Source: Trypanosoma brucei (taxonomy: Eukaryota). Taken from it: a stretch of DNA of 64,000 nt. Shown here piece after piece: positions 1 through 21,113 of this stretch (the first letter of the stretch is position 1; each line of letters begins with the position of its first letter). The stretch is taken from positions 2,592,001 through 2,656,000 of the forward strand of contig CM000208.1 of assembly GCA_000002445.1 (NCBI GenBank), read 5' to 3'. Both the position numbers and the translations under genes were made by a program. The notes beneath the pieces were generated by a model. The model worked only from the letters and a program-made list of their open reading frames with translations. It was not told where the DNA came from and ran no database searches.

Positions 1-2170
1 ACTCCCCCATCTTCTTAGATATCACCTCGGATGGAGTTGGGGGCCCCCCCTCAGACATCGATGTCGTGTCACAGTCGCTGCCGTCGGCATACAAGGTCTC
101 CTTCCTGCCATTCACTTGATAATGGTTGCAGTAGGTCGACCACTGTGTGCCCTTCACGTAGAATGACACGAAAGCAACCGCGAAGAACTCCTGCCTGACG
201 GCGGAAGACTCCGTTGCAACCGAGCGTTGATCCCTCCCAACATCGGCGGCTATTATTAATATTCCGCCGGATGGGTCAGCCTTCGCTAGCTTCGGACAAA
301 CTTGGTTCACATCTAGGGTCCAATTGAGGCGACCGGTTTTTGCGCATATTTGTTGCGCAACGGCCATGACAATCGACAACTCACGACCTCCCGTTAGGTC
401 CTTAGCCACGACTTGGCTAAGGGCACCGCCGCCCGACCATGATGCCTTCCACTCTGCATACGGCTCCCTCTCGGGTCGCCGCAGGAACGTCACACCAAAA
501 ATGTTCTTCCCCAAGCGGCCCTTCGCCTCTTTCAAGCTTCGAACGGGGATGGAATCCCCGAAATTTAGTGGGGCGCTCATGCCATCAAGGTACTTCTTTA
601 TATTACCGACGACAACAGTTCCCTGCTTGTTGTTTGTTTCGTCATACAATACGACGTCGACTGTCTGTCGCGCACCGGGGTGCCTAAGGTCTTTGAGCTC
701 CTTCACGAAACCCTGTTGTGAGCTCTCGCTTTGAGGGTTCACTCGTCGAAAACCGTCACCCTTTGGTATCAATATTTCCGGGGACTTCAGCACCTGACCA
801 TCCACGGAAACGAAATCCTTTCCAAAGGATATTCCGTACGCCTCCAAGAACTTCACGACCCTCCCCCCTTCGTGTTGGATTAGACGTTCAATGACACGCC
901 TGAGGCGTTGAACACGATCATCAGGAAATATGGAGCACAGCTGCGGAAGTTGCCTTCGGTCTTGCTCATTCAAGGACATCTCGTGCAGCACCTGAGGTGG
1001 GACAAGCACCACCCGCCGCCCGTCGTTCGTCCGGCACTTAAAAAGTGCTTGCTGTGGCTCAATATGAATCCCGTACCGGTCGCGGAAATACTCCACATAT
1101 GTCTGTGACGGGTTTTGTTTGAGGCCCGCTGCATCGCAGGCCTTATTGTCCGTAATATCAAGGACGGTATACATAGTAGCACGGGATTTGTCCACCACAC
1201 TGTATACCTTTTTCTTAATGAAACGCTCGGCGAGCGCTCGTCGGATACTACCGCGTGCTCGCCTCCTTTCATCCTCCATCGCCGTCAAACAGTCCATGGC
1301 CGACGCCACGGGAAGGGAGACGTCCAGCTGCAGGACATCGTTTTCTTTGCCACGGATTACTGTCGAAAACGCCTTCACAGAAACTGCCTCAAATATAGAG
1401 ATGGTTCCTGTGGCATTTTTTTTTCCGTTTTTCAGGTCTACAAACTTTGTACCGACCTTTTCCTCATAACATTCCTGAACGGCACTACCGATCACGCAGT
1501 TCAACTCCATTGTCCTCTCTTTGGGGTTCAACGAACATGATGTCGCCTGCTTCAGCGTAAGCGTGTATGTGTATGTCACCGTTTTCCCCTTCCCTTTGCG
1601 CGCGTTCACGGTCAATTCGTAATTATATTCCTCCACGGGAAGTCTAGTGGGACATATTATCGATGACCCTGTGCAGACGCACATGTTGACGTCAAATGCG
1701 TCTTCGCTACCGCTTTCCTTTCTCATTTTCAACAACATATTCTTCGATGCGAGCACTTTAACCCTTTCCCTGAGGTCGGGTGCCCCATCTTTCATTTCAA
1801 TGGAAAGGGGGTAAATGAAGGCACATTTCCTCGGGTCGATGTACAGAGGGAGGAGGTTTGTCCATGCCTCCACTGGCCGGTCGTACATCCCGGCTTTCGC
1901 AAACGAAACCACCGCATCCCTCTCACGGGTCTGGCCAGTCCGATACGCCCCGTCACCAAAGCCTCCACCACGTCCACCACGGTATCCACCCTCGCCTCCA
2001 CCACGTCCACCACGGTATCCACCCTCGCCTCCACCACGTCCACCACGGTATCCACCCTCGCCTCCACCACGTCCACCACGGCGTCCACCCTCGCCTCCAC
2101 CACGTCCACCACGGCGTCCACCCTCGCCTCCACCACGTCCACCACGGTATCCACGTTCCCAGTCAGACAT
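1..2170 (-). CDS. AGO1: Argonaute (AGO1-like). This is the N-terminal ~723 codons. ATG at 2170..2168 and the frame stays open to the left window edge, so the C-terminus lies outside the window.
   Basis: Hand translation of the minus strand from 2170 gives MSDWERGYRGGRGGGEGGRRGGRGGG..., an RGG/RG-rich N-terminus. Further in there are PIWI-like motifs: AKTGRLNWTL, like the KLGG(I/V)N box, and GGILIIAADVGRD, like the GADV catalytic box. I met no stop codon down to position 1. It is absent from the ORF track because it has no in-window stop. Confidence 0.72.
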   Translation of the reverse strand, partial: MSDWERGYRGGRGGGEGGRRGGRGGGEGGRRGGRGGGEGGYRGGRGGGEGGYRGGRGGGEGGYRGGRGGGFGDGAYRTGQTRERDAVVSFAKAGMYDRPVEAWTNLLPLYIDPRKCAFIYPLSIEMKDGAPDLRERVKVLASKNMLLKMRKESGSEDAFDVNMCVCTGSSIICPTRLPVEEYNYELTVNARKGKGKTVTYTYTLTLKQATSCSLNPKERTMELNCVIGSAVQECYEEKVGTKFVDLKNGKKNATGTISIFEAVSVKAFSTVIRGKENDVLQLDVSLPVASAMDCLTAMEDERRRARGSIRRALAERFIKKKVYSVVDKSRATMYTVLDITDNKACDAAGLKQNPSQTYVEYFRDRYGIHIEPQQALFKCRTNDGRRVVLVPPQVLHEMSLNEQDRRQLPQLCSIFPDDRVQRLRRVIERLIQHEGGRVVKFLEAYGISFGKDFVSVDGQVLKSPEILIPKGDGFRRVNPQSESSQQGFVKELKDLRHPGARQTVDVVLYDETNNKQGTVVVGNIKKYLDGMSAPLNFGDSIPVRSLKEAKGRLGKNIFGVTFLRRPEREPYAEWKASWSGGGALSQVVAKDLTGGRELSIVMAVAQQICAKTGRLNWTLDVNQVCPKLAKADPSGGILIIAADVGRDQRSVATESSAVRQEFFAVAFVSFYVKGTQWSTYCNHYQVNGRKETLYADGSDCDTTSMSEGGPPTPSEVISKKMGE
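1957..2155 (-). repeat. Tandem 33-nt coding repeat, about six copies, encoding the RGG box of the Argonaute N-terminus (G G E G G Y/R R G G R G).
   Basis: Unit ccaccacgtccaccacgg(t/c)(a/g)tccaccctcgcct reiterated. The only variation is tat/gcg, which gives Y or R. Confidence 0.8.
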
Positions 2171-5100
2171 TTTATTTAAATCCTTTTTATTAAGTTGCTT
2201 GTTTGCTTTTTTAGTTGATGACTGAAAGAGAACAAATAGTTTTTATCCTTTTCGCGTTCAACCTGATTACCCGTTCTGTGTTCAAACAAAAGAAAAGATC
2301 AGGTTGAAAGTTTTTTCTGGTAACTTTTTCCCAACAAATAATGAATACTGCTTTTTCATGCCGTTTTTTCCATAATTGATATCACATGTGAGTAACTCTT
2401 AACTGTATATGTCACTCGAACGTCGGGGTTGCTTACCCTATGAATGTGCGCGCTCTGTCGCCGAGTGCCATCATTTTGCTGCTACGAGTAAGTTTCCAGT
2501 CAGACAACATTACGAAAGTACTGCTCCTTCTCTTTGACTCTAACGTTGAGGCTTCTTCACAGACCCTCGTCTAAAATATCGTACACCTGAAACTACCGCA
2601 TGGGTGACCATATATAATACGAGTGTACAGTTGGCGCAAGAAAGAAATTACCACATAAACGTATCTTATTTCGTAAGACGTCGTTCTTCATAGTAATTAC
2701 TTACATGTCAGCCTTGCCATGCGTCAAAAACTGTGCATCCAACTTCTGTCGTCAACTTACCTTGTAATAAGGGTACCAATACATTGTATCCTTGTACAAT
2801 AAGGCCACTAAGTGCAGACCCAAGACTCGAATATGAATAATAAGGGATGAACAGAGCCTACCTGAGTATACTGAGGAACAGTAGCCTTCTAGAAAATACC
2901 TAGGTTACCGTAAAGGTATCAGCACGGCACTTCTATATTGTTCAGTCCAAATATATACCCCTATGACGTTATCACATCAAAGACACGCCCGACGGGGCGC
3001 TACACAGGGTCATCGTACTCATCTTTGAAGAGTGCTAATAACGTAAGTGTAAGGCAATAAACACGCACTTCACAATTATTGCGTGTTTAAACCACCAGTA
3101 TTCCCCGGTGTTTTCCCCGCCCTTCGTTGCCAGTGAATTGAAAGCAATTGTACTGCGTGCTGTTCCTATATTAGTATGTCATTATTGGGATAAGATCTTC
3201 ATAACGAAATCCAAACAATAAGCATTAGTACTCCCAAAACAGCATGCCGAACAAATTGTTAAGGAACAGAAAAGGTCGCATAAATAGTTTTCGAAAAATA
3301 ACAACAGCAATGATATGAAGCGACGTTATCAGTTACGGTGTAAATCTGTCAGTAACAGCTCAAGTGACCCCCGATTACTTGTGCGACGTATCCAACGCCA
3401 ATACTACGGTAACGTAATAGCTAAAATTATTGTGTTCACAACTTTTTCCACCTTTAGATGTTGTACTTGAATGCTTTCAACAATACCGAATAAAAGTATT
3501 TTGAACAACAGAAAAACAGTATAGATAACCATGTCATCGGAAGAGAAGCAGCGATAATCAGTAACAAAATGGACTTGCGACTCCTAACAGAACACTGCGG
3601 CTGGTTAACGGATCCAGTAGTTAAATCAATGCGGGGTACAACAAAGATTTCTTCTAACCACTAACACGATTGTAATGAAAAATAAACAAAAATGTTTCCA
3701 ACGAAAGATGTGAAAAGGAAAAATTCTCAATACCTAATAGGACCATTGAAACACAAGCTCACCATCAAATTCCACGGACTCATAATTCTTAGCATCATTA
3801 GAAGTGATCGATTACACCGTGGACAGCCTGGCAAACATGAAGGGAAAACTGTCCTCCATTCCTTTGTTCTGCCAACCCCCACCTGCCCACAAATACGAAT
3901 ACAACAAAAACCATTAACCGCACACCTCACCGGCGCAACCCGTATGATTCTCGTTGTGAAGAAAACCATCTTCCGCCAAAACAAAGTAACCGATCCCCCG
4001 TGACGGCCGCAAATTACGGGACCGTTTTATCAACTAATCAACCTACGCTTTCAAACAAAACACTCGTAAACAGCAATCACCAAAGCAGGCACTAATATAT
4101 ATATATATATATAGACAGCATGACAGGAGGTTATTAAAATGGCATCACAGTCTCACGAAGCCCTTTTAAGGGAGTGGACAAAAATATACGCATTGTGAGC
4201 CCCCTTTGCCACTAGTAATCCCACACTGCTAAAAAAGTGGAAAACAGTTCGTCACGAGTTGGAGGGAAAGGGGAATTGTCCTTCCCACATGCGTAGCCTA
4301 TACCGGCGACAAAACAATGGGGAGGAAGCAATGTCAAGTTTGTTTAAAACATCCACGGGGGACGTTGTAGCACCCACCCTAAAGGGAATACTGGTAACTA
4401 TGATTTAAAAAAACTCAAGAAGCACCAAGCAGTCACTGGTCACATGTAAATAGTAAGTTCCTAACCTTTTACACCGTATGTCCTCAGCAACCCAATGTCC
4501 CTTTAACAACAGTAAGGTAGAGAAAATCAATAACCAGACAGCTATTTATCATTTTACTTTTGAAAAAATGTGGAGATATGATAATAAGTTCACCAAATGA
4601 TTTAACTATAATTGATATTCCAGATTATTTTTAAATTTGACTCCCAAAGACTCGACTACATGGAGACACATATGTGCAAACGGGCAAATTCCGGGAGATG
4701 CAAACTTCTGTATAAATTTTTGTGATGATTGCTGTAACAATGCTGATGTTCGATGCTTGTGCTATCTCCCTTCGTTCATTTCCAGAGCACAGATCGCAGA
4801 CGGAATGTTCCCTTTATAAACGATACGTTGGCACTACAAGGTACCACAATGGAACATCAACAGGATACTGGTAAAAAACGCAAACGAAAAACGAAAAGTC
4901 ACGGTGGTACGCCCTCCCGTACAAGGCAAACTGGTAGGGGCCTTGAGCAGCCGTTTATACCGTGTATTTGAACCCACAAGCGTACATTGCTAAAATATTA
5001 ACAAGATTAAGCGTCAATGCGGTGAAATCCAGAACCCCTCACAAAGTTGAACCCAGCACTGTCGTAAAGTCCATGCCCTTCAATAAGCATTCATATATTT

Positions 5101-8100
5101 CATGGGCCACAGGGGAGTTAGGACAACAGCAGTCGGCACACAGCAATCAAAGCACGGGCTGTGACAGTGAAGAGAGTGATATACCTGGTGGATCGCATAC
5201 CATCCATGCAAAACGTGGCCTAGGCACAGGAATACTAGACAAAATAAAGCAAAGTTATAAAACTTGCCGGAAGTAGCACAGTGATAATGACAGTACACTC
5301 TCGGGGAAAATATTCACACCAGACAATTTGAAAGCGAACTCCAAGCAACAATGTTCTCATTACATAGATATCAGGCTGCGGGGGTGACATACCGGCAACG
5401 CAATTTTAAAAAAATAGAACAGATGAAAAATATTTAACAAACGACAAAAAACATACAGAAAACAAGTTTCCTATTTTGAGAATTAATATATTTCCCGTTC
5501 AAAACACGCAAAGCCAATTCCGAAAATGGAGCGGCAAAAAAAAAAAATGGAAAATACCTCTCAGGTATCCGGAGCCAAACCACGGCATGTACTCAGTATG
5601 TAAGATGCGTAAATAGCTTTACACGATCGAAATTTGGCAATGCTGTTGTTTTGACTCTATGTAGAAGCGGTCATGTCACAGCAACGGTCAAAAATACTCC
5701 GCGAAACCGATGACCACCAGAACCTCTAAGTGGATTCTGGAAAACAAAAACAAAATCGCCGATTTAAAATAAAAGATGCCCTTTTCGAAATTTTGTTCTA
5801 AAGGCTGCCTGTATCGAGTGAACGGATTTTGTGGCGAGGCTCTTCCCCTTTAGCAGTTCCTTCATAAGCACTCGCGTAGCAAATATCTTAACAGTAGAAT
5901 AATAATGCGTTACCTTCAGAAAGCACAGAAATACTTCATTACCGGGCTCAGAAGGAGATTGCAATTCCACTGAAACCCTTTAGCGGATCCGTAACAAAGA
6001 ATTCGGCGTCTTCCCCTACAACCCCAAAAACGATAACGCAGCACGCCACTATAGTTGCACACCCCCAAAAGGAAGGAAATGACTCTTTCTCCCAAATGAA
6101 TAGGGGAACATGGCTTTACCGGTAATATGCTTCCGAAAATACGGCAAACCAGCATAGACATTTGCTGACACAACACCTCACACAAGGGTAGTCATATGCT
6201 GCGCACCAAAGTGTGCCCCTATGCCGCGACGTTTTAGAATCTTAATTCACTCCGTGCGCACTTCGGTAGCTCAATATTCCAGTGTTTACTCTAAAACAGA
6301 GCTAGCTTCTACAGCAAAGCCAGTCTCCCGTCAGACAGCAAGAAGCCAGAGCAATGCGTTGACGAGAAAACGATGCAAATTTCCTTACACCGACCGATAG
6401 TTTTTTTCGGTAGGATAAAAAAAACTGGTAATATTAAATGGTTCCAGCTTATATTAATGCAGCCCTTCCAAGGCCTTCTCCAACTAAAATATATACAGCC
6501 AATTCTCAAAAAATAGGAGAGGAAACGCAGTGACTCCGTTACTTAACTGCGTATCGAGACGGCTGCGTTGATGGTATCGACAAATGGGTTAACGAAAACC
6601 CCACCACGAGCAACGATCAGCACCGTTGTCACAAACGAAGAATAGCAAAACACATTCATATGAAGAAACCCACGTATCCCACCCGGAACATTTGTCGAGG
6701 GGCAGAGCAACGATAAAACCAACTGTTAGTGACGCCTTGTGTAAAGTGGTTTCGTCATTGTGTTGAAAACAATAAACAGTTGGAAGAAACCAGTATATGA
6801 GAGCGGTAACGCACTCACGACGTATCAGCTAAATAGGGAAATGACGATAAACGCAAGGTGATGGCGTTCTCTGCCGCCAACTAACCACAAACCGTTACGC
6901 TTAAGGGGGTGGGCGCACACATACACACACCTCAGCCAGTGAGGTAAACGGGAAATCACTACGTGACACAACGCCAATGAGAGAAAGGGGAATAAGCCCT
7001 GAGGTACAGCTCGCCACTCGCGGTGCACTCGAGGGCGCTGACTTAACACCACACAATCTTTGAAACCGCCTCCTCCTAGACTACAGGAAAGATACCGCGC
7101 ATACCGGTGGTACCAGCGCATAAATGTCCCCATATCACCAGCCACATAGTGACACGACTTTAAGGTTTGCTGAAAAATGCACCTAGCCAGCCTGACTGGG
7201 TGCTGTAATGAAAGTAACTAGGTAGCAATCTTTGCTGGAAATGAAATAGCACGCTCCTAGCAGACAGATGGAGAAAGCAAACAACATTATCCACAACATC
7301 GCAACCTTTCAACTTCCGCTCCGGCTCAGAAAAATGGTACCCTACATGCTTCGACATCAAAGGGCGAAACGACGTACGCCACGCGGCGCAGTCGGCAAGA
7401 GAATCTTTGGCGCTACCCCGCAGCCCCTCGCCACTCTGGAACCTTCGCAGCGCCGTGCTAAGTGGAAGTGCACTGGCAGGCCCCTTTCCCCCCTCTCGGG
7501 GATCAAGCACCAACAAGTGGAAGGAGGTCGGCAGCCCGCACTCCGCCCCCCACCCCTCTCCCTCGTGCAGGCACTTGGAACGCTTACTGAACTATGCCGT
7601 TGCCCTCCTGTTAAGAGTGGGGTGGTCTTTCAACCAATTCAACGTTCACCACCTTCCCACACCCCAGAGGGTATTAGGTGCGAAGATCAGCCGATACCAG
7701 CCGCGCCGCCAAGTGGCACACGTGTCAGCTATGTTTTCCGGACTGATTTCGTTCCTTTTGCGTTCGTTTTTGGTGTTTGACTCTTCGACTTGTAGAAAGG
7801 CCTCTTACGTAGCAGGATCCCTCCGCACACCCGGTGGTCGCGGAACACAGGCACAACGTCTCTGCCGCAGATCCCAAAGGCGATAATTTTCTGATTTATC
7901 ACTTTGTCAACGCGCCCTGTTTGTCTGCAAATGGACACGCACTCGTACCGACACTTTGAGCATCCCCCTAGTTCTCAGTACTATTTCCTCCGAGAAAGGA
8001 TAACTATGAATGCTTCTGCCGCGGTTAGTTTGTGGCTGGTCTCCACGTTGCTGGCCTTTGGCAAGGAGTGTTAGCCCCCTCTTGACCCAGCCACGAACCC

Positions 8101-9281
8101 ACAATGCACACCCTGCGCTAGGCTTGGTTATGCACCTACGCTTGCGTCGAAAGGACCCTTGTGTGCCACTGTGCGGGAGCTGTATGTTTCGTTGTTTGTG
8201 GCTTATCTACTCCTATGTTGTCTTTTGGCTGGGTCAATCCGCATTTGGATTGCATTGCTTTACCGTTAGTGACGGGGTCTTTCTTTGGCCGCATTTTCAT
8301 CCAAGAAAATCCGAATTTGACTGCATTTTCCTCCGCGAGACCCACTGAGCCATTTCTTTCAGTCAGAAAGAGTTTTTGACTACGGCGCTTCGTCAGCACG
8401 CGAAAGTTGACGCCACACCAGCCCTTTCCGCCCGTGGAACAAACAATGTGCGGACCCCACATCCCAGGGATGTTCCACCCGTTGTTCTTCGAATAATTGA
8501 GTGCCTCTGGACTCCGATTGTTCTGGCGCTACGGAGGGATCGGTCACCAAGTTGGCGCATGTCATTACTAAGTGGCGTATGGGATGGTGTTGCCTCGGCG
8601 TTCCCTCGTCGGCTCCACCGGCTGCTGAGTGGCAAGGCTGAACTACGGCCCGCCTGCTAACTTTGCGGGCCGATCTTATCAAGTATGCCCATTTCGAAGC
8701 GTTTCTCTTGCCGCCTTCGGGAATCGAGCAGAGTCATATGAAGGCGTCCGCACCTGCGCTGCGGGGTGGTTCCGTTCAGCATTTGTTTGTGGGGACACTT
8801 ATCCTCTTTTCCATTTCGGCCACCTCTTCCCCCGTAGAGAGGGACTGCTGGCGACGTCCTGCCCGACGTCCTGCCCGACGTCCTGCACCCCATCGTTTCA
8901 CTTCTAATAATAGTTACAAAAGTGTGTGTCTGTACGGCAGTGCATATTTCTCCAGTCCCCAATCGCTTCGGTTGCTTTTACTCTTCTGAAGCACGGTTCA
9001 GAGGCGGTTGCTCAGTGCACTTCCATGGAAATAGCGCGCACAGACAGGATATCAGTTGTTTGTCTGAGCTGACGCGGGCATGAAACAGTATCATGCGGTG
9101 CCTTTTGACGGTAGTGACCAAATGTGTCAAGGCCAGCCTCGGGGAATCGTTTTGCTGTTCCTGTTGTGGCTCCTACTTTCCGTGGGGAGGGTAAGCGGAA
9201 GCGAACGTGTCAGTTCAAGGAATTGGAGAAGGTGCACTGTTACGCGGACAAATTCACGTCCGGGAATACTCCAACTAACAA

Positions 9282-9381
<100 letters not shown>

Positions 9382-11415
9382 CTAACCCTTTTTCCCCCTG
9401 CCATGTGCCACACTGACAAAAGGGAGGGAGGGGAACTGTTAAACGGCAACCTTGACTAGGTTTAAGCCCCGAATTTCGCGTCGCCTATTCGCTACGCGCG
9501 ACTACTGTGTGTGTTAGAATTATCGTATTCTTTGTTCATTAATTACTTTTTTTTTTCTGCCTGTGTGTAGAGGATTTTTCGTGCGTTATGAGGGACGGTT
9601 CAGTGAAATGCACTTTCGATTGTTCTGTCGTCGCCGACATTTTTGTCTTCATCGGTGAGGTGTTTTTACCTAATTGGTTGCCCTACTGGTTCCTATATAA
9701 TGCGATGCCGCCCATGAAATATTGTGCTCTTTTCATATTTTTTTAACGTTAATCTTTTGCGACCTTTGCGAAGAACAAGAGCAACTTCTAATGGTAAACA
9801 GAACGATTCCACAACAAAGAAAAGGAAATACAAATAGGCGTAAAAGTTTGATTTCTGTAAGAGAACCAAAAAAAAACACAGAAAGAAAAGGGTGTAAAAA
9901 CAACTGATGTAAGAAAGAGAGAGAAATCTGCAGCAAGTACTGAGGGGGGTAATGGGGGAAAAAACGGAGACGACGCGCCGGCATTTCGAACCTCCTTTGA
10001 GTTTGCGGTTGCTTACGTGTGTGTGTGTGTGTCCCGTTTGCCTACACTCCCCGCCCCCGGGTGCGTAAATAAGGCGACCCCCCCCCCGTCCCTACATCAG
10101 CGAACTGCGCAGGAAGAACCCATGTATATACTTCTCCTCCTTACTGGTTGTGGATGAAAGGATCGTCACCTCTCAGGTTTGCATTGCGCAAGATCGTACC
10201 AGCTTGACGCCTTTCCGAGTGTGCATTGCATGTGCCAAATTACCCTTACGGTGCGGACCGTCGCGTTTGGGGCGAGATTCCTGTAGGCGTCTTGTGAAAA
10301 AGCTGGCCCCGTCCAAGTGTTCGACGGCGCGTCCCGTAATACGACAAATGTGAACAGAAGGGAAGGCTACCGGTAGTGGCCGGGTTCGTGAACCATTAGG
10401 AGTCGTTCCTGAAAATGGCGCGCCAGCGCAGCAACCCATTCACTAGAGGTTTGGATGAATGAAGAACTCTACCTGTACAGGGGTTGTGGATTTAGTGTGT
10501 GACAACATAACTCTCCAACGGCAGTTGACACATAAAACTCAGTTCCTCGTAAATGGCAGCTGCGCAAGGTGCTCCCCTTAATTCGCCGCTTGTGTGATGC
10601 GCTTTGCGGCATCAAACCAATAATGGGGGGAAATGTATTTTCCGTCCTGTATATGGACCCGTTTTTAAGTAAGGATGAACTTTTTAAGGTGCGAAACACC
10701 GGCGTAAATTTCCTCTCTATGACTCCAACATCCTCCAAGCTTCCTCGGATCACTTGGTGTGGGAGCATGGCCCCTAACCTCTTTGCAAAGCTCGGCCAAA
10801 ATGTATGGCCTTGCGTTGCTTCATCTCCGGATGATTCGTGTAAAAAGAAATCTGCGTGTCTTCTATAGGGTTGAAATCAGTTAATCTCCTTGATTCGTGT
10901 CCAGGCGTACGTGTGTGTGTGTGGATTAAAAGCGGCTGTTCATGCGTATGCTTTTTCTTTTTCAAATTAAGGAAGAAAGGGGAAGACATTTTTTAAAACC
11001 ACGCGGAGAAGCGGTGAAATACTAGAAAAAGGCTCCTCCGTTCCACAAAAGTTTGTTGCATATTTTAATGCAATCAGAAAACTGGTGTATCAGTGGTGTG
11101 GAAATCAACCATCAGCATTCCAAACCAAAGATCCGCATCCTTGCAAGTTGTGGTGCCGATTTTGACGCAGCATTCCATCGGACTGCCTTTTTTCTTTTCC
11201 TAACGCACCACTTACCAATTTCCAAAGGTAAAAAAACCACAAAAAATCAAATGGCTGCTAAAAGGGCTTTAACTCCGACTTGTTTGCTTTATCGTGGCAA
11301 AACACGAACAAGCAACACGGTGTCAGTCATCGGAAAGGTGTTGCCAGCGACGGCGCCACTCCGACAGAAACGAAGCAGTAGCGGCTCGTTAGGCAGAGAC
11401 GCTCTGGCGCTCGGT

Positions 11416-11488
11416 TCCTCCCTGGCGCAGTCGGCAGCGCGTTAGGCTGTTAACCTACAGGTCGTTGGTTCGAATCCAACGGGAGGAG
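11416..11488 (+). tRNA. tRNA-Asn (anticodon GTT)
   Basis: Cloverleaf folded by hand: acceptor tcctccc/gggagga, D arm gcgc-agtcggca-gcgc, anticodon arm ttagg-cTGTTaa-cctac, T arm gttgg-ttcgaat-ccaac. Followed by tcttttt. Confidence 0.85.
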
Positions 11489-11565
11489 TCTTTTTGCTGC
11501 CCACCTCCGAAAATTCTGGAGGTCACTTTCGCTATAAAGGAAGAACTGAAGCTGTTGCAAAAACA

Positions 11566-11637
11566 GTGGACGAGTAGGGGTTTGAACCCTAGGCCTCCTG
11601 TATGCAAAACAGGCGCTCTACCACTGAGCTACACGCC
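11566..11637 (-). tRNA. tRNA-Ala (anticodon TGC)
   Basis: Minus-strand sequence gggcgtgtagctcagtggtagagcgcctgttttgcatacaggaggcctagggttcaaacccctactcgtcca. It has the G3:U70 alanine identity pair, anticodon loop ttTGCat and T loop ttcaaac. A T-run follows on the minus strand. Confidence 0.85.
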
Positions 11638-11740
11638 CTTCAACACGGCTAAATCCGTAATATCACATGAGGTTGTTTAGCAACCGTTGTGTACCATCAC
11701 GTAAAGTGGTGTGCTGTGATTGGCGAGAGGGCGTGGCGGT

Positions 11741-11813
11741 GCTCCAGTGGCCTAATGGATATGGCTTTGGACTTCTAATCCAAAGGTTGCGGGTTCGAGT
11801 CCCGTCTGGAGTA
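11741..11813 (+). tRNA. tRNA-Arg (anticodon TCT)
   Basis: gctccag acceptor paired with ctggagt, D loop aatggata, anticodon arm ttgga-ctTCTaa-tccaa, T arm gcggg-ttcgagt-cccgt. Followed by cgttttc. Confidence 0.85.
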
Positions 11814-11862
11814 CGTTTTCGTGTCCAAAATTATTTCATATTTGTTCGTTTCTAGTTGTTTG

Positions 11863-11934
11863 CCGGAGAGCAGCCTTCCTAGCTCAGTGGTAGAGCGCAC
11901 GGCTTTTAACCGTGTGGTCGTGGGTTCGATCCCC
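11863..11934 (+). tRNA. tRNA-Lys (anticodon TTT)
   Basis: gccttcc/ggaaggc acceptor, gctc-agtggta-gagc D arm, cacgg-ctTTTaa-ccgtg anticodon arm, gtggg-ttcgatc-cccac T arm. Followed by cttttc. Confidence 0.88.
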
Positions 11935-12029
11935 ACGGAAGGCGCTTTTCTACACTGCCGCTTAAGCTAATTTCTTTGCTGGGTACGACATGTAAGCGTT
12001 AGAGGCTTGCTTGGAGGAGGGTTGGCGGT

Positions 12030-12102
12030 GCCCCCGTAGCCCAATGGATAAGGCGTTCGCTTCCTAAGCGAAAGATTGCGGGTTCGAGTCCCGCCGGAGG
12101 TA
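12030..12102 (+). tRNA. tRNA-Arg (anticodon CCT)
   Basis: Acceptor gcccccg/cggaggt with one mismatch, D loop aatggata, perfect 5-bp anticodon stem ttcgc/gcgaa with loop ttCCTaa, T arm gcggg-ttcgagt-cccgc. Followed by gttttcc. Confidence 0.75.
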
Positions 12103-14332
12103 GTTTTCCGGTGCAAAAACTTGCGGATATATGAGATGGTCGCGCGAACGTGGCAGAAGCCGCAGCGGCGTTTGGATTTGGCGGGTCCTTTTTGCGGTGA
12201 ATGCTTGCGGGTTCATAAAACATCCGCGTTGAACCCCGTTTACGCGTGTCGAGGCCGGGGCATACAAATATGACGCCACTTCTTTGGCGCGGCTCCTCGA
12301 GGCTTGGTTGGTTACGCAAGCTCCCAAGCCCGCGGCGATTCGTTGGAAATTTGAGGAGAGGCCCCGATGTGTTCGGCGCTGGCGTTGAGGCCATTGCGAC
12401 GGAAGCTCTACCGGATTTTTGTGTTAAAGGCGCCACAAGTCCGCAAAACCCACTTCACCCTCTGTCGATGCGTTGTTGCGCCAACCAGGGTGGCACAGGG
12501 TGGAGTGGGGGGGGGGGGGGAGAAAAAGATAACCTGTTTTTCGGCGTGTGGCCACACAGTCATGGAGTTTCTTGTACTCAAGCCACGCTTTGCCTTATGA
12601 ATTCTTTCTTTAGGCCCTTGGTTTGTACGATGTCCACTGGCAGGGACAGGGGTTGAAGAAGTCACAACCATAGGAGATGACGACGGTTATTATCATTATT
12701 ATTATTATTTTTTTTTTTTGCGGGGGGCTTTGAAGCGCAGAGACACACACCAATGAGCACGTGTATGCGGTTTCCCCCAAAACTTTCCCCATCCGAGTGT
12801 GTTGCTCCGACGGATTGCCTTACATTACTGAAATTCACGACCGTAAGGGTGAGTCCCAGCCGGCTTCAGCGGCCGCACTGGGGGAGGGGGGAGAGATTAA
12901 GTTGGTCGGGTTTTCTCTTTCCACGCCATCGGCAAACAGCAAAATGGGCAACAGGGGTTAGGATACTCTGCAGAGACGGATCGTACGGGAAAGAGGGGGG
13001 TGACACATTTGCCTTCTAATTCAACACTTGACAATGGCTACGGGAAATTGGGACCATTTTGATCCTCTTGTTCCGCCGAACAACAAAACCAGAAATAACT
13101 ACCCGTTGCCACCTTCAGCGGCTACATATATATATATATTTATGTAAATTTATATGAAGCACACACCGCAGCAACCGGGGCTGTGCCGCTCGGTTGCCCA
13201 TCCACTTTTTTGTGCGTGGGCAACTGGGAAATGGAAGGGAAGGGAGGGGAAGGGTGATGTGTGGAGGAGAGCTCAGGGGATGCCATTCCTTCATCCATCA
13301 AGGGGACTGATGTAATATTTGAAAATGTTACGCGAACCTTCCCACGGCTGCCTCCTAACCTTCCGCCACGTTCTCATCTGCCATAGGCAAATGAAGGTTG
13401 CGGAGCCAAACGAGCGGGGCAGTGCCCTTTACGTAGTCTTTTATCTTGAGCAGACGGAACCGGAGGACGGGAAGGGAACCGTTACACGCGGGACGCGTAG
13501 TTGTGTGCCACAGGCCGTCATTGCCGTTGATATCATCTGCTCCATCTCGGCCATTCCATGTCTAGCCATCAGAGACGACCCCGACCCTCTCTCCACGCGC
13601 TTCTCACTTGCGAGACAAATGACACCGTTTCAAGCTTCTTAGCTATTCACATGGTTCCGATACAGGGGTGCCGAGCCGACTCTCCTCCTCTTTCCGCCGT
13701 GGCCCAAGTTTCGTATCACTTCCATCGAAGTACATGGGTTCGCACTTCGGCCTCGCGTGGATAAATGCCTCTCTCGTCTTAAAAAAAAAAAGAATTGCTT
13801 TGTTTCCTCTCCCCGCGGAAGCGAATATGGGGTGTCCCTTGCTTCGTCATGCAACCTCCTTGACAGGCGGCGGTTCTTTCAAGCTTTACTCTTCGCAAGG
13901 GGGAAAACGTACATGATGATATGATCATTCAAGGACGCAAGAAAAAAGGGGACACCCACACATATACGTATATATACATATTTTTGTACATGTGTCAGCG
14001 CATCTGCATATCATGTCTTGTGGTAAAAACGATGTGCTACAGCTGTTGGGCCTTCCCTGCGAGGAGGAAGTGTACGCTCGTAATTTCAACCCCTCATTTG
14101 TCTACTGAGCACGCACTCATGAGAGGAATGGAAGGAAAGGGGGGGGGGGGGAAAGTAAAACTATGAGGCGCACGGCACATACACGCAGGAGTAGAAATAA
14201 CGGCCACACGTTTATGCTTGACGTCGTCACTGCGACAATACCGTCAGCTTTGGGCCAGCAGAAAAACAACACTCCTTCACCACGCGTGTCCACTTTAACC
14301 GCGGCAAAAAAAGTTCTGCACCTGTTGATGGG

Positions 14333-16045
14333 TTAACGAGGTGATGAAAAGTGCCTCAGAAGTTCTCTTAGTTGCTCAGAACGTACGGCGTCGTGCGTGT
14401 AACGCTGGAGGTCTCCTAAGATCTTTGCAAGCACCTCATCGCGAGTCCTTCCTGACCATCCCCAATTGTCGTATTGCCTCCGGAGCTCCGAATCCTTGAG
14501 AAACCGAAACGCAATTGATTCCCCCAACTCGCCCTCTTCACTGCCCCCTTCCAATGGCGTGACGCCTTCGCCCCTCATGTCGGAGTCTTGTACATCACTT
14601 CCCACTGCTTCTGGGGTTGCCAACAACTCACCTTCATCCAAAAATCTTTCTTTGGGGGCACACGGGCTCTTCTTCCCTTCTTCCTCATCCTCATCCTTCC
14701 ACTTCGCACCATCGGAGAAACTTACATCGACAACCGGCGAATGCTTCTGCAGCGCAAGTCGCACAAGATGCAAAACACTCTGCTTGTTTTTCGTCTTCAA
14801 AGTGTTCACCTCAGCGGACTGATATCTTTTCGGTTGGTACTGCATCACGTTTCCACCATAGAAAAGATTATATTCTTGAAAAAGTTCGTGGCGACAGAGA
14901 TCTCCACAGGTGGGACGCTGCTGAGGGAAAAAGGCAAGGCAGCTGGATATCAAATCAATCCATTTCTGCTGCCGATCCCGCGTTGTGTGCAATCGCCACT
15001 GCTCGTTCATCATTCCAACCAATCGTGAGGGACGTGGAGCGCTCCGGAGGAGATAATTTTGAGCGTTTCCCACAGGCATGAATCTTCGTATATCATCATG
15101 GCTAGGTGTCCCAACAATGTTAAGAATCACTTCTAGTTGTGTGCTAGCAAGTTGTCCATCCCACACCCCTTGTTCATTAAGGGCGGATTCAACATTAAAC
15201 AAAGCTTTCCCTGTAACCATTTCGAAAAGGATGCAACCCACCGACCACACATCAATCGACGGCTCCCCTCCCGAGACATTGGTAACGATCTCAGGTGGCC
15301 TGTAATAGCGCGTGCAGACATAAAAGGTGTCACTTGCTTGGGCGTCCCGTGCAAGGCCAAAATCGGCTATGAGCGCCGTTGATTTGTATGGATCTTTACC
15401 ATGCAAACGAACCAAAATATTTTCTGGCTTTATATCTCTGTGGACGATATTACACTTGTGCAAAAAATCCAAACCAAAACATATCTGAAATGCAAAAACA
15501 ACAGTGACCAGCTCAATGAATTCATCTGTCATGGCCGGTTTACTGCCTGAAGATGATACGTGCTTTATAAAATAGAGCAAGTCACCCTTCATCAGAGGCA
15601 TCACTATATGGAGACTAAATTCGTCCTCTCCGCTCAAGCGATTCACCATAGAAAGGACTTTATCATGGTATTTGGAAAGCTCGTCATTGCGGCTTTGATT
15701 AGGGTATTGAGGCCCTGCGGCGTCGAAGCGGCGGGCGTCCACCAGTGTCGTTGCCCCGTCCCTACCACCTTCATCCTGAGAGAGCACGTTGTCAGCACCG
15801 CTTGGGGTCGCAAACATGTCAAAGTACCCAATCACGTGAGGATGAGCGTCATGGAGGAAAGACATTATATCTATCTCTCTAACGAGGCGGGCGCTTTCCT
15901 GGTTTACAAAGCGCGAAGGGATTGTCTTCACGGCAACATGTTCTCCTGTGAAACGATCTACGTGCTCGCTCACAATACCGAATCCACCCTTGCCAACGAC
16001 CGCAACGTGCTCATACCGCCAAGCGAGTAACGGGACATTGTGCAT
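14333..16045 (-). CDS. Serine/threonine protein kinase, CMGC-like, with a long insert between the N-lobe and the catalytic loop.
   Basis: 570-aa ORF containing GKGGFGIV (Gly loop), VAVK, HRDIKPENILV, DFGLAR, TRYYRPPE (close to the GSK3/CMGC SRYYRAPE motif) and DVWSVGCIL. Confidence 0.8.
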   Translation of the reverse strand: MHNVPLLAWRYEHVAVVGKGGFGIVSEHVDRFTGEHVAVKTIPSRFVNQESARLVREIDIMSFLHDAHPHVIGYFDMFATPSGADNVLSQDEGGRDGATTLVDARRFDAAGPQYPNQSRNDELSKYHDKVLSMVNRLSGEDEFSLHIVMPLMKGDLLYFIKHVSSSGSKPAMTDEFIELVTVVFAFQICFGLDFLHKCNIVHRDIKPENILVRLHGKDPYKSTALIADFGLARDAQASDTFYVCTRYYRPPEIVTNVSGGEPSIDVWSVGCILFEMVTGKALFNVESALNEQGVWDGQLASTQLEVILNIVGTPSHDDIRRFMPVGNAQNYLLRSAPRPSRLVGMMNEQWRLHTTRDRQQKWIDLISSCLAFFPQQRPTCGDLCRHELFQEYNLFYGGNVMQYQPKRYQSAEVNTLKTKNKQSVLHLVRLALQKHSPVVDVSFSDGAKWKDEDEEEGKKSPCAPKERFLDEGELLATPEAVGSDVQDSDMRGEGVTPLEGGSEEGELGESIAFRFLKDSELRRQYDNWGWSGRTRDEVLAKILGDLQRYTHDAVRSEQLRELLRHFSSPR

Positions 16046-16388: not shown

Positions 16389-18443
16389 TTAACCATCGTT
16401 AGCCTTCTCCTCCTTGTCTTTCTTCACCTTCTTCACTTTCTTCCTTTTGTCGAGGAGTGCGAATGCAGCGTCCAACTCAGCTAGCTGCCTTTGACGGGTT
16501 TCTTCCTCCTTTTCCTTCTTTAGTGCAGCAACATCTTTTCCAGCACCTTCTCGGGCGAGGCGGCTGTTCAGCTGCTTCTCTTCCGTCGCTATATGTCGTT
16601 CCTTTAGCATTTTCTTCTCCTGCTCCTCAAACTCCCTGCGCACTTTATTCTTATAGTCGTTGAGTGACCCGTTAAACGGACGGACATTCTGGTTACCCGC
16701 TTCCCATATCTGCATATCTGTCTCTTCAATCAAACGCGCGTCGTGAGTAACAACCAGAACCCCTCCTTTAAAGTTTTTAATTGCATGACAAAGGGCTTCA
16801 ATGGATTCCACATCCAAGTGGTTCGTCGGCTCATCAAAAAGGAGGAAGTGAGGTTTCTCAGCGCTAATTGCAGCTAACGCTACTCGTGCCTTCTGCCCAC
16901 CGCTTAGTGTTGCAATCTGGTTCTTGTGCACGATACCTTCCAGGCCAAAGCTTCCAAGCTGGCGTCGCGCCTTGTCCTCCTCGCGGATTCCAAGGGACTG
17001 AATGAATTCCACCGATGTCTTTTCCAGGGGCAACTTGTCAACGAAGTGTTGATTGTACCGACCAATGCGGACTTTTCGATTCATCGTGATAATACCCTCC
17101 GTGGGCTCCAATTGCCCCGTCAAGAGGCTCAGCAGTGTACTTTTTCCGATGCCATTGGGGCCGCAAAGTGTTATACGGCTGTCGGCCCAAAGTGCACAAC
17201 TAACCTTGTGGAAGAGAACCGGACCTCCAGGATAGTTAAACGAGACATCCTCTAGCTTTACTATGTAACCATCTGGCAGTTCCGGCGGCTCGGAAAAGGG
17301 GAAGTTGACGATATAGTCGCGGCGTTTCTCCAAATATATTGGGTCCAGGCGGCCGGTGCGCACTTGGTCTTTAATCCACTCATCCACCTGAGCATTCGAC
17401 ATGCCATTGCGCTTTTTCTCGTTGATGGTCTTGTTGAACGTTGCATACTTCTTGTCGATCTCTTGGTGTCTTTGGCGCAGTTGTTCGTCGAAGCCACTGA
17501 AACCGCCACGGTAATAGTTCAGTTGGTAGTTTTCAACGTGAACCATGTGCGTGCACACCTCATCCAGGAAGCCTGCATCGTGCGAGACAACAACCAGAGT
17601 CTTTGGTCTCCGCGCCTTTTCATTATACTGCTCACAGAGGTATGACTCCAACCAAATGACGGCGTTTAAATCCAAATGGTTTGTCGGTTCGTCCAACATG
17701 AGCACATCGGGCTCAATGAAGACGGCGGCCGCCAGGGCAATGCGCTTGCGCCAGCCACCGCTAAAGCTGCTCGTTGGACGCTCATGCCACTCCGTAGGGA
17801 AGCCCAACCCAAACAGAATACGCCTGGCACGGGCCTCGGCCTGTGCAGCACCCATTATATCCAGCTCTTCCTCTAAGAAGTTCAGGCGCTCCATCTCTTC
17901 ATGGGAGAGTTCCGTCTTTTCATGAAGTTGGGCTGCCTCACTTGCAAACTCTCTTTGCTTTTTGTGGCTTTGAAGAACAGCCTGGACGGCGCTCACCTCG
18001 GACTCATGAAATTCTTGTTCCTGCTCCACGAGTAACAGCTCCAAATTTGACTGCACAGGGAGCTCCCTTGAACTTAGTAGCCTAAGAATAGTAGACTTAC
18101 CACGGCCGTTCGGCCCCATCAACCCGTACCGTGCGCCCGCCGACAACCGCACTTGTGTGTCCTTGAAGAGAACTTTCCCGTTAACAGACACGGCAACACG
18201 CTGTAAGGAAATGTCACGAGACCCCTCAGTCCCCTTGTCGTGTTCCCATGTCACCGAAAAGGGATTGTCACCATCCTTATTAACGCAGTTTGCTTGCTCT
18301 CGCAGCTGCCGCTGTTCTTCTAGTAGCTTTTCAGTCCTCTCTTGCTTTTTGCGGTCCTTCCGAGAAAGAACTGAAACCTTCACATCACTATCACCCAAGA
18401 CATTGGCATCTCCCACACATCCAGCAGTACTAAGCGAAGACAT
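16389..18443 (-). CDS. ABC-F family ATPase: two nucleotide-binding domains, no transmembrane domain, lysine-rich C-terminal tail.
   Basis: 684-aa ORF with two Walker A boxes (GPNGRGKST, GPNGIGKST), two ABC signatures (LSGGWRKR, LSGGQKAR) and two Walker B boxes (LMLDEPTNHLD, LLFDEPTNHLD). No hydrophobic segments. Confidence 0.85.
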   Translation of the reverse strand: MSSLSTAGCVGDANVLGDSDVKVSVLSRKDRKKQERTEKLLEEQRQLREQANCVNKDGDNPFSVTWEHDKGTEGSRDISLQRVAVSVNGKVLFKDTQVRLSAGARYGLMGPNGRGKSTILRLLSSRELPVQSNLELLLVEQEQEFHESEVSAVQAVLQSHKKQREFASEAAQLHEKTELSHEEMERLNFLEEELDIMGAAQAEARARRILFGLGFPTEWHERPTSSFSGGWRKRIALAAAVFIEPDVLMLDEPTNHLDLNAVIWLESYLCEQYNEKARRPKTLVVVSHDAGFLDEVCTHMVHVENYQLNYYRGGFSGFDEQLRQRHQEIDKKYATFNKTINEKKRNGMSNAQVDEWIKDQVRTGRLDPIYLEKRRDYIVNFPFSEPPELPDGYIVKLEDVSFNYPGGPVLFHKVSCALWADSRITLCGPNGIGKSTLLSLLTGQLEPTEGIITMNRKVRIGRYNQHFVDKLPLEKTSVEFIQSLGIREEDKARRQLGSFGLEGIVHKNQIATLSGGQKARVALAAISAEKPHFLLFDEPTNHLDVESIEALCHAIKNFKGGVLVVTHDARLIEETDMQIWEAGNQNVRPFNGSLNDYKNKVRREFEEQEKKMLKERHIATEEKQLNSRLAREGAGKDVAALKKEKEEETRQRQLAELDAAFALLDKRKKVKKVKKDKEEKANDG

Positions 18444-18998: not shown

Positions 18999-21113
18999 TC
19001 AGTCCACTTCCTCCATACCCGACGCACCAGTACTGGAGTTGGCGGCAGCAGCGGCAACGGGTGCCTGCGCTTCCTCCTCTTCCGCATCATCGTCGAGTGA
19101 GAGACCCAATTTGATCATGCGGTGGATACGGTCAGCGTATGCCGTGGGGTCATCAAGTGTAAACCCGGATGTCAGCAGCGAGGTGTCGAAGAGGAGGAAT
19201 ATCAGGTCCTTGGCGGCCTTGTCGTTTTCGTCGGCCTCCACGCGTCGTTTCAGCTCCTTGACGATGGCGTGCGTGGTGTTGATCTCCATGGTCTTCTTCG
19301 ACATCATGTACGCAGACATGCTGGAGTCTCGCAGAGCCTGGTTGCGCATGATCTGTTCCATGTGTGCACTCCACCCGAACTCTGATGTCACGAGAATGCA
19401 TGGTGATGTTGCCAACCGGTCGGACACCACCACCTTCTCCACTTTGTCACCAAGTACCTCTTTCATTGCCTTGCACAGCCGCTCGTATGATGCCTTCTCT
19501 TCTTCCCGCTGTTTCTTCTCTTCCTCCGTCTCCTCGAAGTGTACACCCTCCTTTGTGAGGCACGCGAACTTTTTGTCCTCAAAGTCCTTCACTTGCTGCA
19601 TCACATACTCGTCGATGGGGTCAGTCATGAAAAGTACCTCCATGCCGCGGCGCTTCGCCTGCTCGATGAACGGAGACGTTTCGAGCTTCTTCTTGCTGTC
19701 ACCCGTCACATAGTAGATGCACTTCTGACCATCCTTCATGCGTGTCACGTAGTCCTTCAATGTCGTCATCTCCTCACCGGATTCCGAACTGTGGAAGCGC
19801 AGCAGTTCCATCAGCTTCTTGCGGTTTGTGCTGTCTTCGTGGATGCCCAGCTTCACGTTCTTGCTGAACTGTTCGTAGAACTTCTTGTAGTCCTCCTTGT
19901 TCTCTGCGAGCTCCTCGAAGAGCTCCAGGGCCTTCTTCACAATATTCTTACGGATCACCTTGAGGATTTTGTTCTGCTGCAGGTTCTCACGGGAGATATT
20001 TAGTGGCAGGTCCTCGCTGTCCACCACACCGCGCAGGAAGCCGAGCCACTCGGGGCACAGGTCCTCACAGTTGTCCATGATGAACACGCGGCGGACGTAT
20101 AGCTTGATGTTGTTGCGCTTCTTGTTTGGTTCGAACATGTCAAAGGGTGCGCGCTTCGGGAGAAATAAGATAGCCCGGAACTCCAGCTGGCCCTCCACGG
20201 AGAAGTGCTTCGTAGACAGCTGCTCTTCCCAGTCGTTCGAGATGGCCTTGTAGAAGGAGGCGTACTCCTCCTTTGTTACATCTTTCGGGTCGCGCGTCCA
20301 CAGTGGCTTGTGCTTGTTCTGCACCACAAACTCCTGCTTCACTTCCTTCACCTTTTTGGTTTTCTTTTTCTTGGCATCGGCATCATCGCCGTCCTTCACC
20401 TCTTCCACCTTTGGCTCCTCACCTTCCTCAGCCTTTTTGGCGGCCTCTTCGTCTTCGTCTTCATCTGTCACCTCCTTCTCAGTGGTGTTCTCCACCATTA
20501 ACTCGATGTCGTAGCCGATAAATTCGGAGTGTTTTTTGATGAGGTCCTTCAGCCGCCGCTCCTCCAGGTATTCCTGCTGGTCTTCCTTCAAATGCAAGAC
20601 GATACGCGTACCGCGCTTCAGGTCACAGTCGGGCGTGGAGGTTACAGTGAAGGTACCACCTGCAGAGGATTCCCACGTGTAGGCATCGTCCTCGTTGTTC
20701 TTCGACACAACGGTTACGCGGTCTGCGACAAGGTAGGCAGAGTAAAATCCGACGCCGAACTGCCCGATCATGCTCATATCGCCACCGGCCTCCAATGCCT
20801 CCATGAATGACTTGGTACCGGAGCGAGCAATCGTACCAAGGTTGTTCACCAGGTCGGCTTTCGTCATACCGATGCCACTGTCCTCCACCGTCAGTGTCTT
20901 ATTTACTCGGTCGGGGATTACGCGAATGCGCAAATGGGGTTCATCTCCGAGCACGGACTGGTTCGTCAGACTCTGGTACCGGATTTTGTCGCACGCATCT
21001 GACGAATTACTAATTAGCTCGCGAAGAAAAATTTCCTTGTTTGAATAGAAGGTATTAATAATAAGGGACATTAGCTGATTGATTTCAGCCTGGAATGCGA
21101 ATGTCTCCGTCAT
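18999..21113 (-). CDS. HSP83: Heat shock protein 83 (HSP90 family), full length, 704 aa.
   Basis: N-terminal ATPase signature ...[15 protein letters not shown]..., GTIARSGT, the charged linker, and C-terminal MEEVD (the TPR-binding tail). The length matches trypanosomatid HSP83. Confidence 0.97.

Follow-up and report, generated by a model that had tools for sequence, protein, structure and literature searches.

The gene-free interval at positions 2171–14332 of the 64-kb window (the whole stretch of DNA analysed here, bases 2,592,001–2,656,000 of chromosome 10 in Trypanosoma brucei TREU927), which corresponds to 2,594,171–2,606,332 of that chromosome and to about 2.636–2.649 Mb of Chr10_core in Lister 427, is with high confidence a head-to-tail boundary between two polycistronic units of RNA polymerase II (Pol II). 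Table S14 of Kolev et al. (2010) lists a minus-strand unit 'Tb10.406.0020 -> Tb10.406.0650', described as 'next to tRNA', whose first member is the argonaute-like protein (AGO1), and a preceding unit that ends at Tb10.329.0030, the neighbour of the ABC protein Tb10.329.0040 (Kolev et al., 2010, PMC2936537). These assignments are based on enrichment of 5′-triphosphate RNA-seq reads at sites bearing the histone marks that Siegel et al. (2009) reported (Kolev et al., 2010, PMC2936537). Five tRNA genes lie between the two units, and the cluster is placed in a single termination region, sTTR_16, in Table S8 of Staneva et al. (2021, PMC8559703). The transcription-unit boundary proposed in the preliminary description is borne out by these two tables. 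The boundary, the tRNA cluster and the processed RNAs described below are already known, having been published between 2010 and 2021, and therefore have little weight as discovery.

Genes and spacing around the interval

The interval is framed by the following features:

1–2170, minus strand, 5′ part of the AGO1 coding sequence (Tb927.10.10850, formerly Tb10.406.0020), with the start ATG at 2170–2168
1961–2154, minus strand, 33-bp × 5.9 tandem repeat underlying the RGG repeats at the AGO1 N terminus (TRF and translation)
12104–14332, minus strand, 3′ flank of the kinase gene, consisting of the 3′ UTR and the Pol II termination zone (termination role from the sTTR_16 annotation)
14333–16045, minus strand, Tb10.329.0030, a Ser/Thr protein kinase gene whose ORF closes the upstream Pol II unit

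AGO1 in the window matches the TREU927 argonaute-like protein with 100% identity and contains the PAZ domain. Every long ORF between 1 and 64 kb, including those on both flanks of the interval, is on the minus strand, as had been claimed for its neighbours. The largest ORF within the interval encodes 170 aa (7268–7780, plus strand), in agreement with the earlier upper estimate of about 170 aa. Two homopolymer runs on the plus strand, G14 (12507–12520) and G13 (14139–14151), are located inside the kinase 3′ flank.

The interval spans 12,162 bp. The remaining 15 long-ORF spacings in the window have a median of about 583 bp and reach 2,835 bp at most, so that the interval is about 20 times the median gene spacing within these 64 kb. 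Colinear counterparts that are 98% identical occur in both T. b. gambiense and T. equiperdum, which indicates that the interval is not an assembly artefact. The view that an interval of this length is unusual does not hold, because T. brucei Pol II start regions alone are 5–10 kb long (PMC9566855), and so a gene-free stretch of this size is normal at boundaries. What makes the spacer comparatively long is a 4.9-kb portion from which three processed low-coding RNAs are made.

T. theileri and T. conorhini share the order of tRNA genes, spacer and AGO1: in both, a tRNA cluster is followed by an ORF-free spacer of 3–4 kb and then by AGO1. The T. vivax kinase orthologue is followed by no tRNA genes and no AGO1 within 10 kb, and hence either the layout is not universal or synteny is broken in this species. 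The regions downstream of the kinase loci in Leishmania and Phytomonas are not syntenic and are hence uninformative.

The tRNA cluster and the Pol II start region

ARAGORN and Rfam agree on five tRNA genes in the interval, all of which belong to sTTR_16:

11415–11490, plus strand, tRNA-Asn (GTT)
11566–11638, minus strand, tRNA-Ala (TGC)
11741–11814, plus strand, tRNA-Arg (TCT)
11873–11945, plus strand, tRNA-Lys (TTT)
12029–12103, plus strand, tRNA-Arg (CCT)

Each gene scores 63–72 bits against Rfam RF00005 and is followed by a run of 4–5 T. The cluster occupies about 0.7 kb, 2.2 kb past the kinase gene and 9.2 kb ahead of AGO1, and four of its five genes are oriented against the direction of Pol II. 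The five tRNA genes and their T-run terminators had been recognized correctly, but were said to lie in the middle of the interval, whereas they sit at 76–82% from its AGO1 end. The cluster given in Table S8 (Asn, Ala-tgc, Arg-tct, Lys-ttt, Arg-cct) agrees with that in the window in spacing to within 3 bp. All eight Pol III/termination-region (TTR) factors bind the sTTR_16 tRNA cluster, and Pol III genes are frequently found at the termination regions that separate head-to-tail units (Staneva et al., 2021, PMC8559703).

The division of the interval into an AT-rich half and a GC-rich half bearing (CA)48, (GT)n and G/C runs is confirmed by the GC profile and the repeat positions. GC content is 0.38–0.47 over 2.5–7.0 kb and 0.49–0.58 across most of 7–14.3 kb, with dips in the GC-rich half to 0.39 at 9.5–10 kb and 0.45 at 10.5–11 kb. 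The features between the first splice site and the tRNA genes are as follows:

7235–9282, minus strand, GC-rich segment (GC 0.54) extending from (GT)48 to the first splice acceptor, without Pfam match
9283–9378, minus strand, (CA)48, read as (GT)48 in the sense direction; may act as a directional GT-rich promoter element
9379–10016, unstranded, AT-rich core (GC 0.39) containing runs of T10 and A9; the GC skew and the G+T bias both switch strand here
10017–10922, plus strand, (GT)8 (10017–10032), (GT)6 (10911–10922) and C10 (10078–10087; G10 on the sense strand), from the repeat listing

Pol II initiation for the AGO1 unit must lie between 7.2 and 11.4 kb, limits that are set only by the first splice site and the tRNA genes. 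The 4.2 kb enclosed by these limits is ORF-poor, and its sense strand carries (GT)48 and has a G+T fraction of 0.58 at 9.0–9.5 kb; the strand bias turns over at about 9.4–10 kb. In T. brucei, GT-rich elements on the sense strand drive both directional Pol II initiation and the deposition of H2A.Z (Wedel et al., 2017, PMC5579346). The SPARC study reports no common promoter motif among start regions (PMC9566855), and the GT tracts at the AGO1 boundary are therefore only candidate promoter elements; the supplements of that paper contain no single-start-region (sTSR) coordinates for this boundary. The segment at 7235–9282 probably represents the 5′ leader that is discarded from the primary transcript, together with part of the start region, and the AT-rich core at 9379–10016 may be the centre of bidirectional initiation. 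That the opposed GT tracts constitute a bidirectional core promoter is a separate proposal, which we consider unlikely.

Processed RNAs and alternative readings of the AT-rich half

The AT-rich half gives rise to three trans-spliced, polyadenylated RNAs (Kolev et al., 2010, Table S7), positioned here by subtraction of 2,592,000 from the published coordinates:

2317–3473, minus strand, Tb10.NT.122, 1156 nt, longest ORF 32 aa
3595–5262, minus strand, Tb10.NT.123, 1667 nt
5330–7234, minus strand, Tb10.NT.124, 1904 nt

With this offset, all five of the Kolev novel transcripts within the window begin directly after an AG with an upstream pyrimidine tract, and only 3 of 7,229 offsets satisfy the exact AG and pyrimidine test for the three transcripts in the interval. 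A scan with ±6 bp slack is not discriminating; the offset is fixed by the exact-position scan and by the longest ORF of the Tb10.NT.122 segment, which encodes 32 aa (2691–2593) and matches the statement of Kolev et al. (2010). Within the AGO1 unit, the splice-acceptor site mapped furthest upstream is the 5′ end of Tb10.NT.124 (7234). The three RNAs occupy the AT-rich block at 2317–7234, which is thus not silent. No annotated ORF precedes AGO1 in its unit (Kolev et al., 2010, Table S14), as the preliminary description had it, but AGO1 is not the first processed transcript, because Tb10.NT.122, 123 and 124 lie between the start region and AGO1.

The interval might hide one or more protein-coding genes, either as small proteins or micropeptides in the three RNAs or, within the GC-rich half, as ORFs of roughly 100 aa. 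The three RNAs are processed as mRNAs are, Tb10.NT.122 co-sedimented with polysomes and shifted upon translation inhibition (Kolev et al., 2010, PMC2936537), and the T. b. gambiense annotation includes seven ORFs of 99–145 aa in the interval. However, one of these ORFs is interrupted in TREU927, the longest sense ORFs of the three RNAs (32, 80, and 102 aa) are within the range of shuffled sequences, the Pfam searches gave no match, and no peptide is shared with T. theileri, T. conorhini or T. vivax except for translated tRNA DNA, which together make hidden genes improbable. It is likewise unlikely, if conceivable, that the AT-rich block is a functional module, acting as a promoter-proximal buffer, as a regulator of AGO1 output or through the 32-aa micropeptide of Tb10.NT.122. 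Part of the interval, above all its 4.9-kb AT-rich half, could instead be a degenerate retroposon of the ingi, RIME, DIRE or SLACS type. Such elements gather at unit boundaries in trypanosomatids, the block is near a full ingi element in size, and it (2317–7234) is without counterpart in the shorter spacers of T. theileri and T. conorhini. This origin is nevertheless improbable, given that no Pfam domain, whether reverse transcriptase, endonuclease or other, was detected at E ≤ 0.1 on either strand over 2.2–11.4 kb and that the repeat search revealed no internal long repeats, only tRNA-to-tRNA and microsatellite pairs. A retroposon origin would be compatible with a boundary at this locus.

Pfam queries comprised all stop-to-stop segments of at least 45 aa over 2.2–11.4 kb and the nine longest over 11.4–14.3 kb, and a positive control (the kinase, chopped and in the X-joined query format) worked. 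The sole Pfam exception, an HTH match (E = 0.064), was dismissed as chance. A search of segments from the AT-rich half against 5.8 billion proteins also returned no match, but it is discounted because its positive control, a T. b. gambiense ORF with 98% match, was missed too. Rfam at gathering and permissive thresholds (the latter over 2100–14400) recovered only the tRNAs, apart from sub-threshold chance matches, although Rfam coverage of trypanosome snoRNAs is incomplete. The retroelements and non-coding RNA genes that were suggested to be concealed here were accordingly not found by the Pfam and covariance-model scans. The boundary itself would be lost if Pol II read through the tRNA genes as part of one long unit with an unusually long spacer, and some tRNA genes do not coincide with termination regions (Staneva et al., 2021, PMC8559703). 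Read-through is highly improbable at this locus in view of the listing of its five-tRNA cluster in sTTR_16 (PMC8559703) and the separate listing of the AGO1-first unit from 5′-triphosphate RNA reads (PMC2936537).

A model of the boundary and its relation to known systems

In the head-to-tail boundary model, transcription runs from high to low coordinates, and the unit that begins at an upstream divergent strand-switch ends past the kinase gene. Pol II would stop in the kinase flank of about 2.2 kb and at the five Pol III-transcribed tRNA genes, probably via a barrier formed by Pol III/TFIIIB-type complexes on these genes and by termination chromatin. It would then restart in a broad, dispersed region at about 11.4 to 7.2 kb, in which opposite-strand GT tracts flank the AT-rich core, with (GT)48 on the sense strand. 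The new primary transcript is first trans-spliced at 7234 and yields the three polyadenylated low-coding RNAs from the AT-rich 4.9 kb and then the AGO1 mRNA.

Reasoning from the sequence by itself, by which co-directional genes, tRNA genes and an ORF desert together indicate a Pol II unit boundary, gave the correct answer at this locus. For studies of termination at tRNA genes and of GT-tract-driven initiation, the locus is a small and clearly delimited example: its putative barrier cluster measures about 0.7 kb, its start region, which carries (GT)48, measures about 4 kb, and its first splice site is defined at base level.

The boundary resembles the Pol III-marked boundaries of T. brucei, in which an sTTR is followed by an sTSR (Siegel et al., 2009; Kolev et al., 2010; Staneva et al., 2021), in its co-directional flanks, its tRNA cluster in the spacer, its multi-kb ORF-poor start region and its sense-strand GT tracts; there is no substantive difference, and only the spacer is rather long. 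Tb10.NT.122–124 fit the class of 'novel transcripts' (Kolev et al., 2010) in their published coordinates, their AG and pyrimidine tracts and their ORFs at shuffle expectation. Like the GT-rich dispersed promoters of Wedel et al. (2017), the start region has a long coding-strand GT tract upstream of the first processed RNA, shorter opposite-strand GT tracts further upstream, and G/T homopolymer runs. The tract at the AGO1 boundary is a pure (GT)48 microsatellite with candidate activity, whereas Wedel et al. (2017) tested mixed GT-rich 10-mers. A further parallel, drawn by Staneva et al. (2021), is with yeast tRNA barrier or insulator elements, in which Pol III complexes likewise edge a Pol II domain; the proposed role of the T. 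brucei cluster differs in that it would stop a polycistronic Pol II unit.

Position and published extent of the unit boundary

The interval at 2171–14332 is a documented boundary between RNA polymerase II (Pol II) units, already known from the literature. Minus-strand genes flank it on both sides, as the preliminary description had it: AGO1 up to 2170 and a Ser/Thr kinase gene from 14333, followed to 64 kb by an ABC-F ATPase, HSP83, CDC20 and more ORFs, all on the minus strand. A published list includes the minus-strand Pol II unit "Tb10.406.0020 -> Tb10.406.0650" of type "next to tRNA," the unit before it being "Tb10.26.0740 -> Tb10.329.0030" (Kolev et al., 2010, PMC2936537, Table S14); these assignments are based on enrichment of 5′-triphosphate RNA reads at locations where the histone marks of Siegel et al. 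(2009) are found as well. Tb10.406.0020 is the "argonaute-like protein" (PMC2936537, Table S6), and the AGO1 fragment of the window is 100% identical to the argonaute-like protein of T. brucei brucei TREU927. Because Table S6 lists Tb10.329.0040 as the ABC protein, Tb10.329.0030 is taken, by ID adjacency, to be the kinase gene adjoining it.

Five tRNA genes, on which ARAGORN and Rfam concur, lie at 11415–12103.

tRNA genes at 11415–12103, from low to high coordinate
tRNA-Asn, plus strand
tRNA-Ala, minus strand
tRNA-Arg (TCT), plus strand
tRNA-Lys, plus strand
tRNA-Arg (CCT), plus strand

A run of 4–5 T follows every gene (5/5), in agreement with the T-run terminators noted earlier; the cluster is not in mid-interval as had been stated, but begins 2.2 kb past the kinase stop codon and leaves 9.2 kb before the AGO1 ATG. 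In Lister 427, Chr10_core 2,645,688–2,646,379 carries Asn, Ala-tgc, Arg-tct, Lys-ttt and Arg-cct (Staneva et al., 2021, PMC8559703, Table S8), with spacing within 3 bp of that in the window. This cluster overlaps the single termination region sTTR_16, and each of the eight factors associated with Pol III or termination regions binds to it (Staneva et al., 2021). In the accepted model, transcription of one head-to-tail unit has to end ahead of the start region of the following unit, and Pol III genes, which may block Pol II, are frequently found at these termination regions (PMC8559703). The published unit list and sTTR_16 thus support the transcription-unit boundary first proposed from sequence.

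The gap measures 12,162 bp; the window's 15 other gaps have a median of ~583 bp and reach at most 2,835 bp. It is therefore unusually long for the window, and had been described as unusual for such compact genomes, but start regions are 5–10 kb broad (PMC9566855), so that a 12-kb ORF desert holding a termination and a start region is normal for its class.

Sequence content and conservation

The longest ORF in the interval is 170 aa, matching the earlier limit of ~170 aa. GC content is 0.38–0.47 at 2.5–7 kb and mostly 0.49–0.58 past 7 kb, and the simple repeats comprise (CA)48, two (GT)n tracts and homopolymers C10, G14 and G13; all elements of the described AT-rich and GC-rich halves are present. 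T. b. gambiense and T. equiperdum share the interval colinearly at 98% identity, which rules out an assembly artefact. In both relatives (CA)48 (9283–9378) falls at an assembly break: the T. equiperdum contig (L001) terminates within it, and two T. b. gambiense alignment pieces join there (L002 ~16665–16693; 100 N in total in L002).

Retroelement remnants or non-coding RNA genes had been raised as a possibility for the interval. Rfam at a permissive threshold gave no RNA match besides the tRNAs, and a repeat search found no long internal repeats. Pfam detected no domain in any stop-to-stop segment of at least 45 aa on either strand at 2.2–11.4 kb, or in the longest such segments at 11.4–14.3 kb; the control, a kinase domain chopped up and formatted identically, was recovered at E = 5e-33. 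A large protein-database search with AT-rich-half segments gave no match, but this negative carries little weight, since a known T. b. gambiense ORF escaped the search as well.

Past its kinase gene, T. theileri has tRNAs Arg-CCT, Lys, Arg-TCT, Ala and a second Ala, then AGO1, the entire gap being ~5.9 kb. Its two tRNA-Ala(TGC) genes (L003 12902–12973 and 14416–14487) lie 1.4 kb apart in opposite orientation; tRNA-Asn is missing from this cluster, which may be incomplete given runs of N in the spacer. In T. conorhini, a Lys, Arg-TCT, Ala, Asn cluster lies 4.2 kb upstream of AGO1, with a different upstream gene; its tRNA block is 71% identical to 11416–11950 over 577 nt. Outside the tRNAs, no DNA- or peptide-level conservation was found with T. 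theileri, T. conorhini or T. vivax, and the shorter T. theileri and T. conorhini spacers thus show no detectable counterpart of the 4.9-kb AT-rich block. Over the 10 kb that follow the kinase orthologue in T. vivax (L004 11702–21701) there is no tRNA, AGO1 or called gene, which means either a much larger spacer or a break in synteny. The sole sizeable ORF there (427 aa, antisense) has no Pfam match. Leishmania and Phytomonas show no synteny at this locus.

Elsewhere in the window, two long tandem arrays at 39898–45767 (87 nt x 41 copies; 57 nt x 38 copies) keep up to five reading frames open, and plus-strand ORFs of 1251–1957 aa overlap ORFs of 745 and 1649 aa on the opposite strand. Probably a single large minus-strand gene for a repetitive protein accounts for this, with the plus-strand ORFs as its shadows. 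HSP83 (Hsp90) has one copy (18999–21113) versus at least three in tandem at the same place in T. b. gambiense (L002 1–7029), and the array may be collapsed in the TREU927 assembly.

Processed RNAs and the initiation region

The AT-rich half is transcribed: it gives rise to three neighbouring RNAs, each trans-spliced and polyadenylated, that cover 2317–7234 on the sense strand.

Novel transcripts (NTs) in the AT-rich half, from the coordinates of Kolev et al. (2010)
2317–3473, minus strand, Tb10.NT.122
3595–5262, minus strand, Tb10.NT.123
5330–7234, minus strand, Tb10.NT.124

Positions are those in Tb927_10_v4 (PMC2936537) minus exactly 2,592,000. With this offset, the 5′ end of each of the five NTs in the window directly follows an AG with an upstream pyrimidine tract on the minus strand, a condition that only 3 of 7,229 possible offsets satisfy for the three gap NTs. 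The longest ATG ORF in the Tb10.NT.122 segment is 32 aa, agreeing with Kolev et al. (2010). These fits, together with the AGO1 identity, place the window at chr10:2,592,001–2,656,000. Tb10.NT.122 was confirmed by Northern blot and co-sediments with polysomes (Kolev et al., 2010); the range of ORF lengths given by shuffled sequence includes the longest sense ORFs of the three NTs (32, 80 and 102 aa). AGO1, previously described as the first gene of a new unit, is its first annotated ORF but, since Tb10.NT.124, 123 and 122 precede it, its fourth processed RNA.

The published low-coding transcripts Tb10.NT.125 (27141–27692) and Tb10.NT.126 (31349–31767) sit in intergenic gaps of the ordinary kind, and both have a clear splice acceptor with a pyrimidine tract and AG. 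At 5767–6191 (minus strand), an annotated 146-aa T. b. gambiense ORF is split over two frames in TREU927, which fits its not being a real gene.

Initiation must lie in the 4.2 kb that separates the tRNAs (11415) from the first splice acceptor (7234). The sense strand there carries (GT)48 at 9283–9378, next to an AT-rich core at 9.4–10.0 kb beyond which GT tracts and G+T bias switch to the plus strand. These opposed GT tracts around an AT-rich core are candidate initiation elements, in line with the GT-rich directional promoter elements of T. brucei (Wedel et al., 2017, PMC5579346) and with the bidirectional initiation reported by Kolev et al. (2010).
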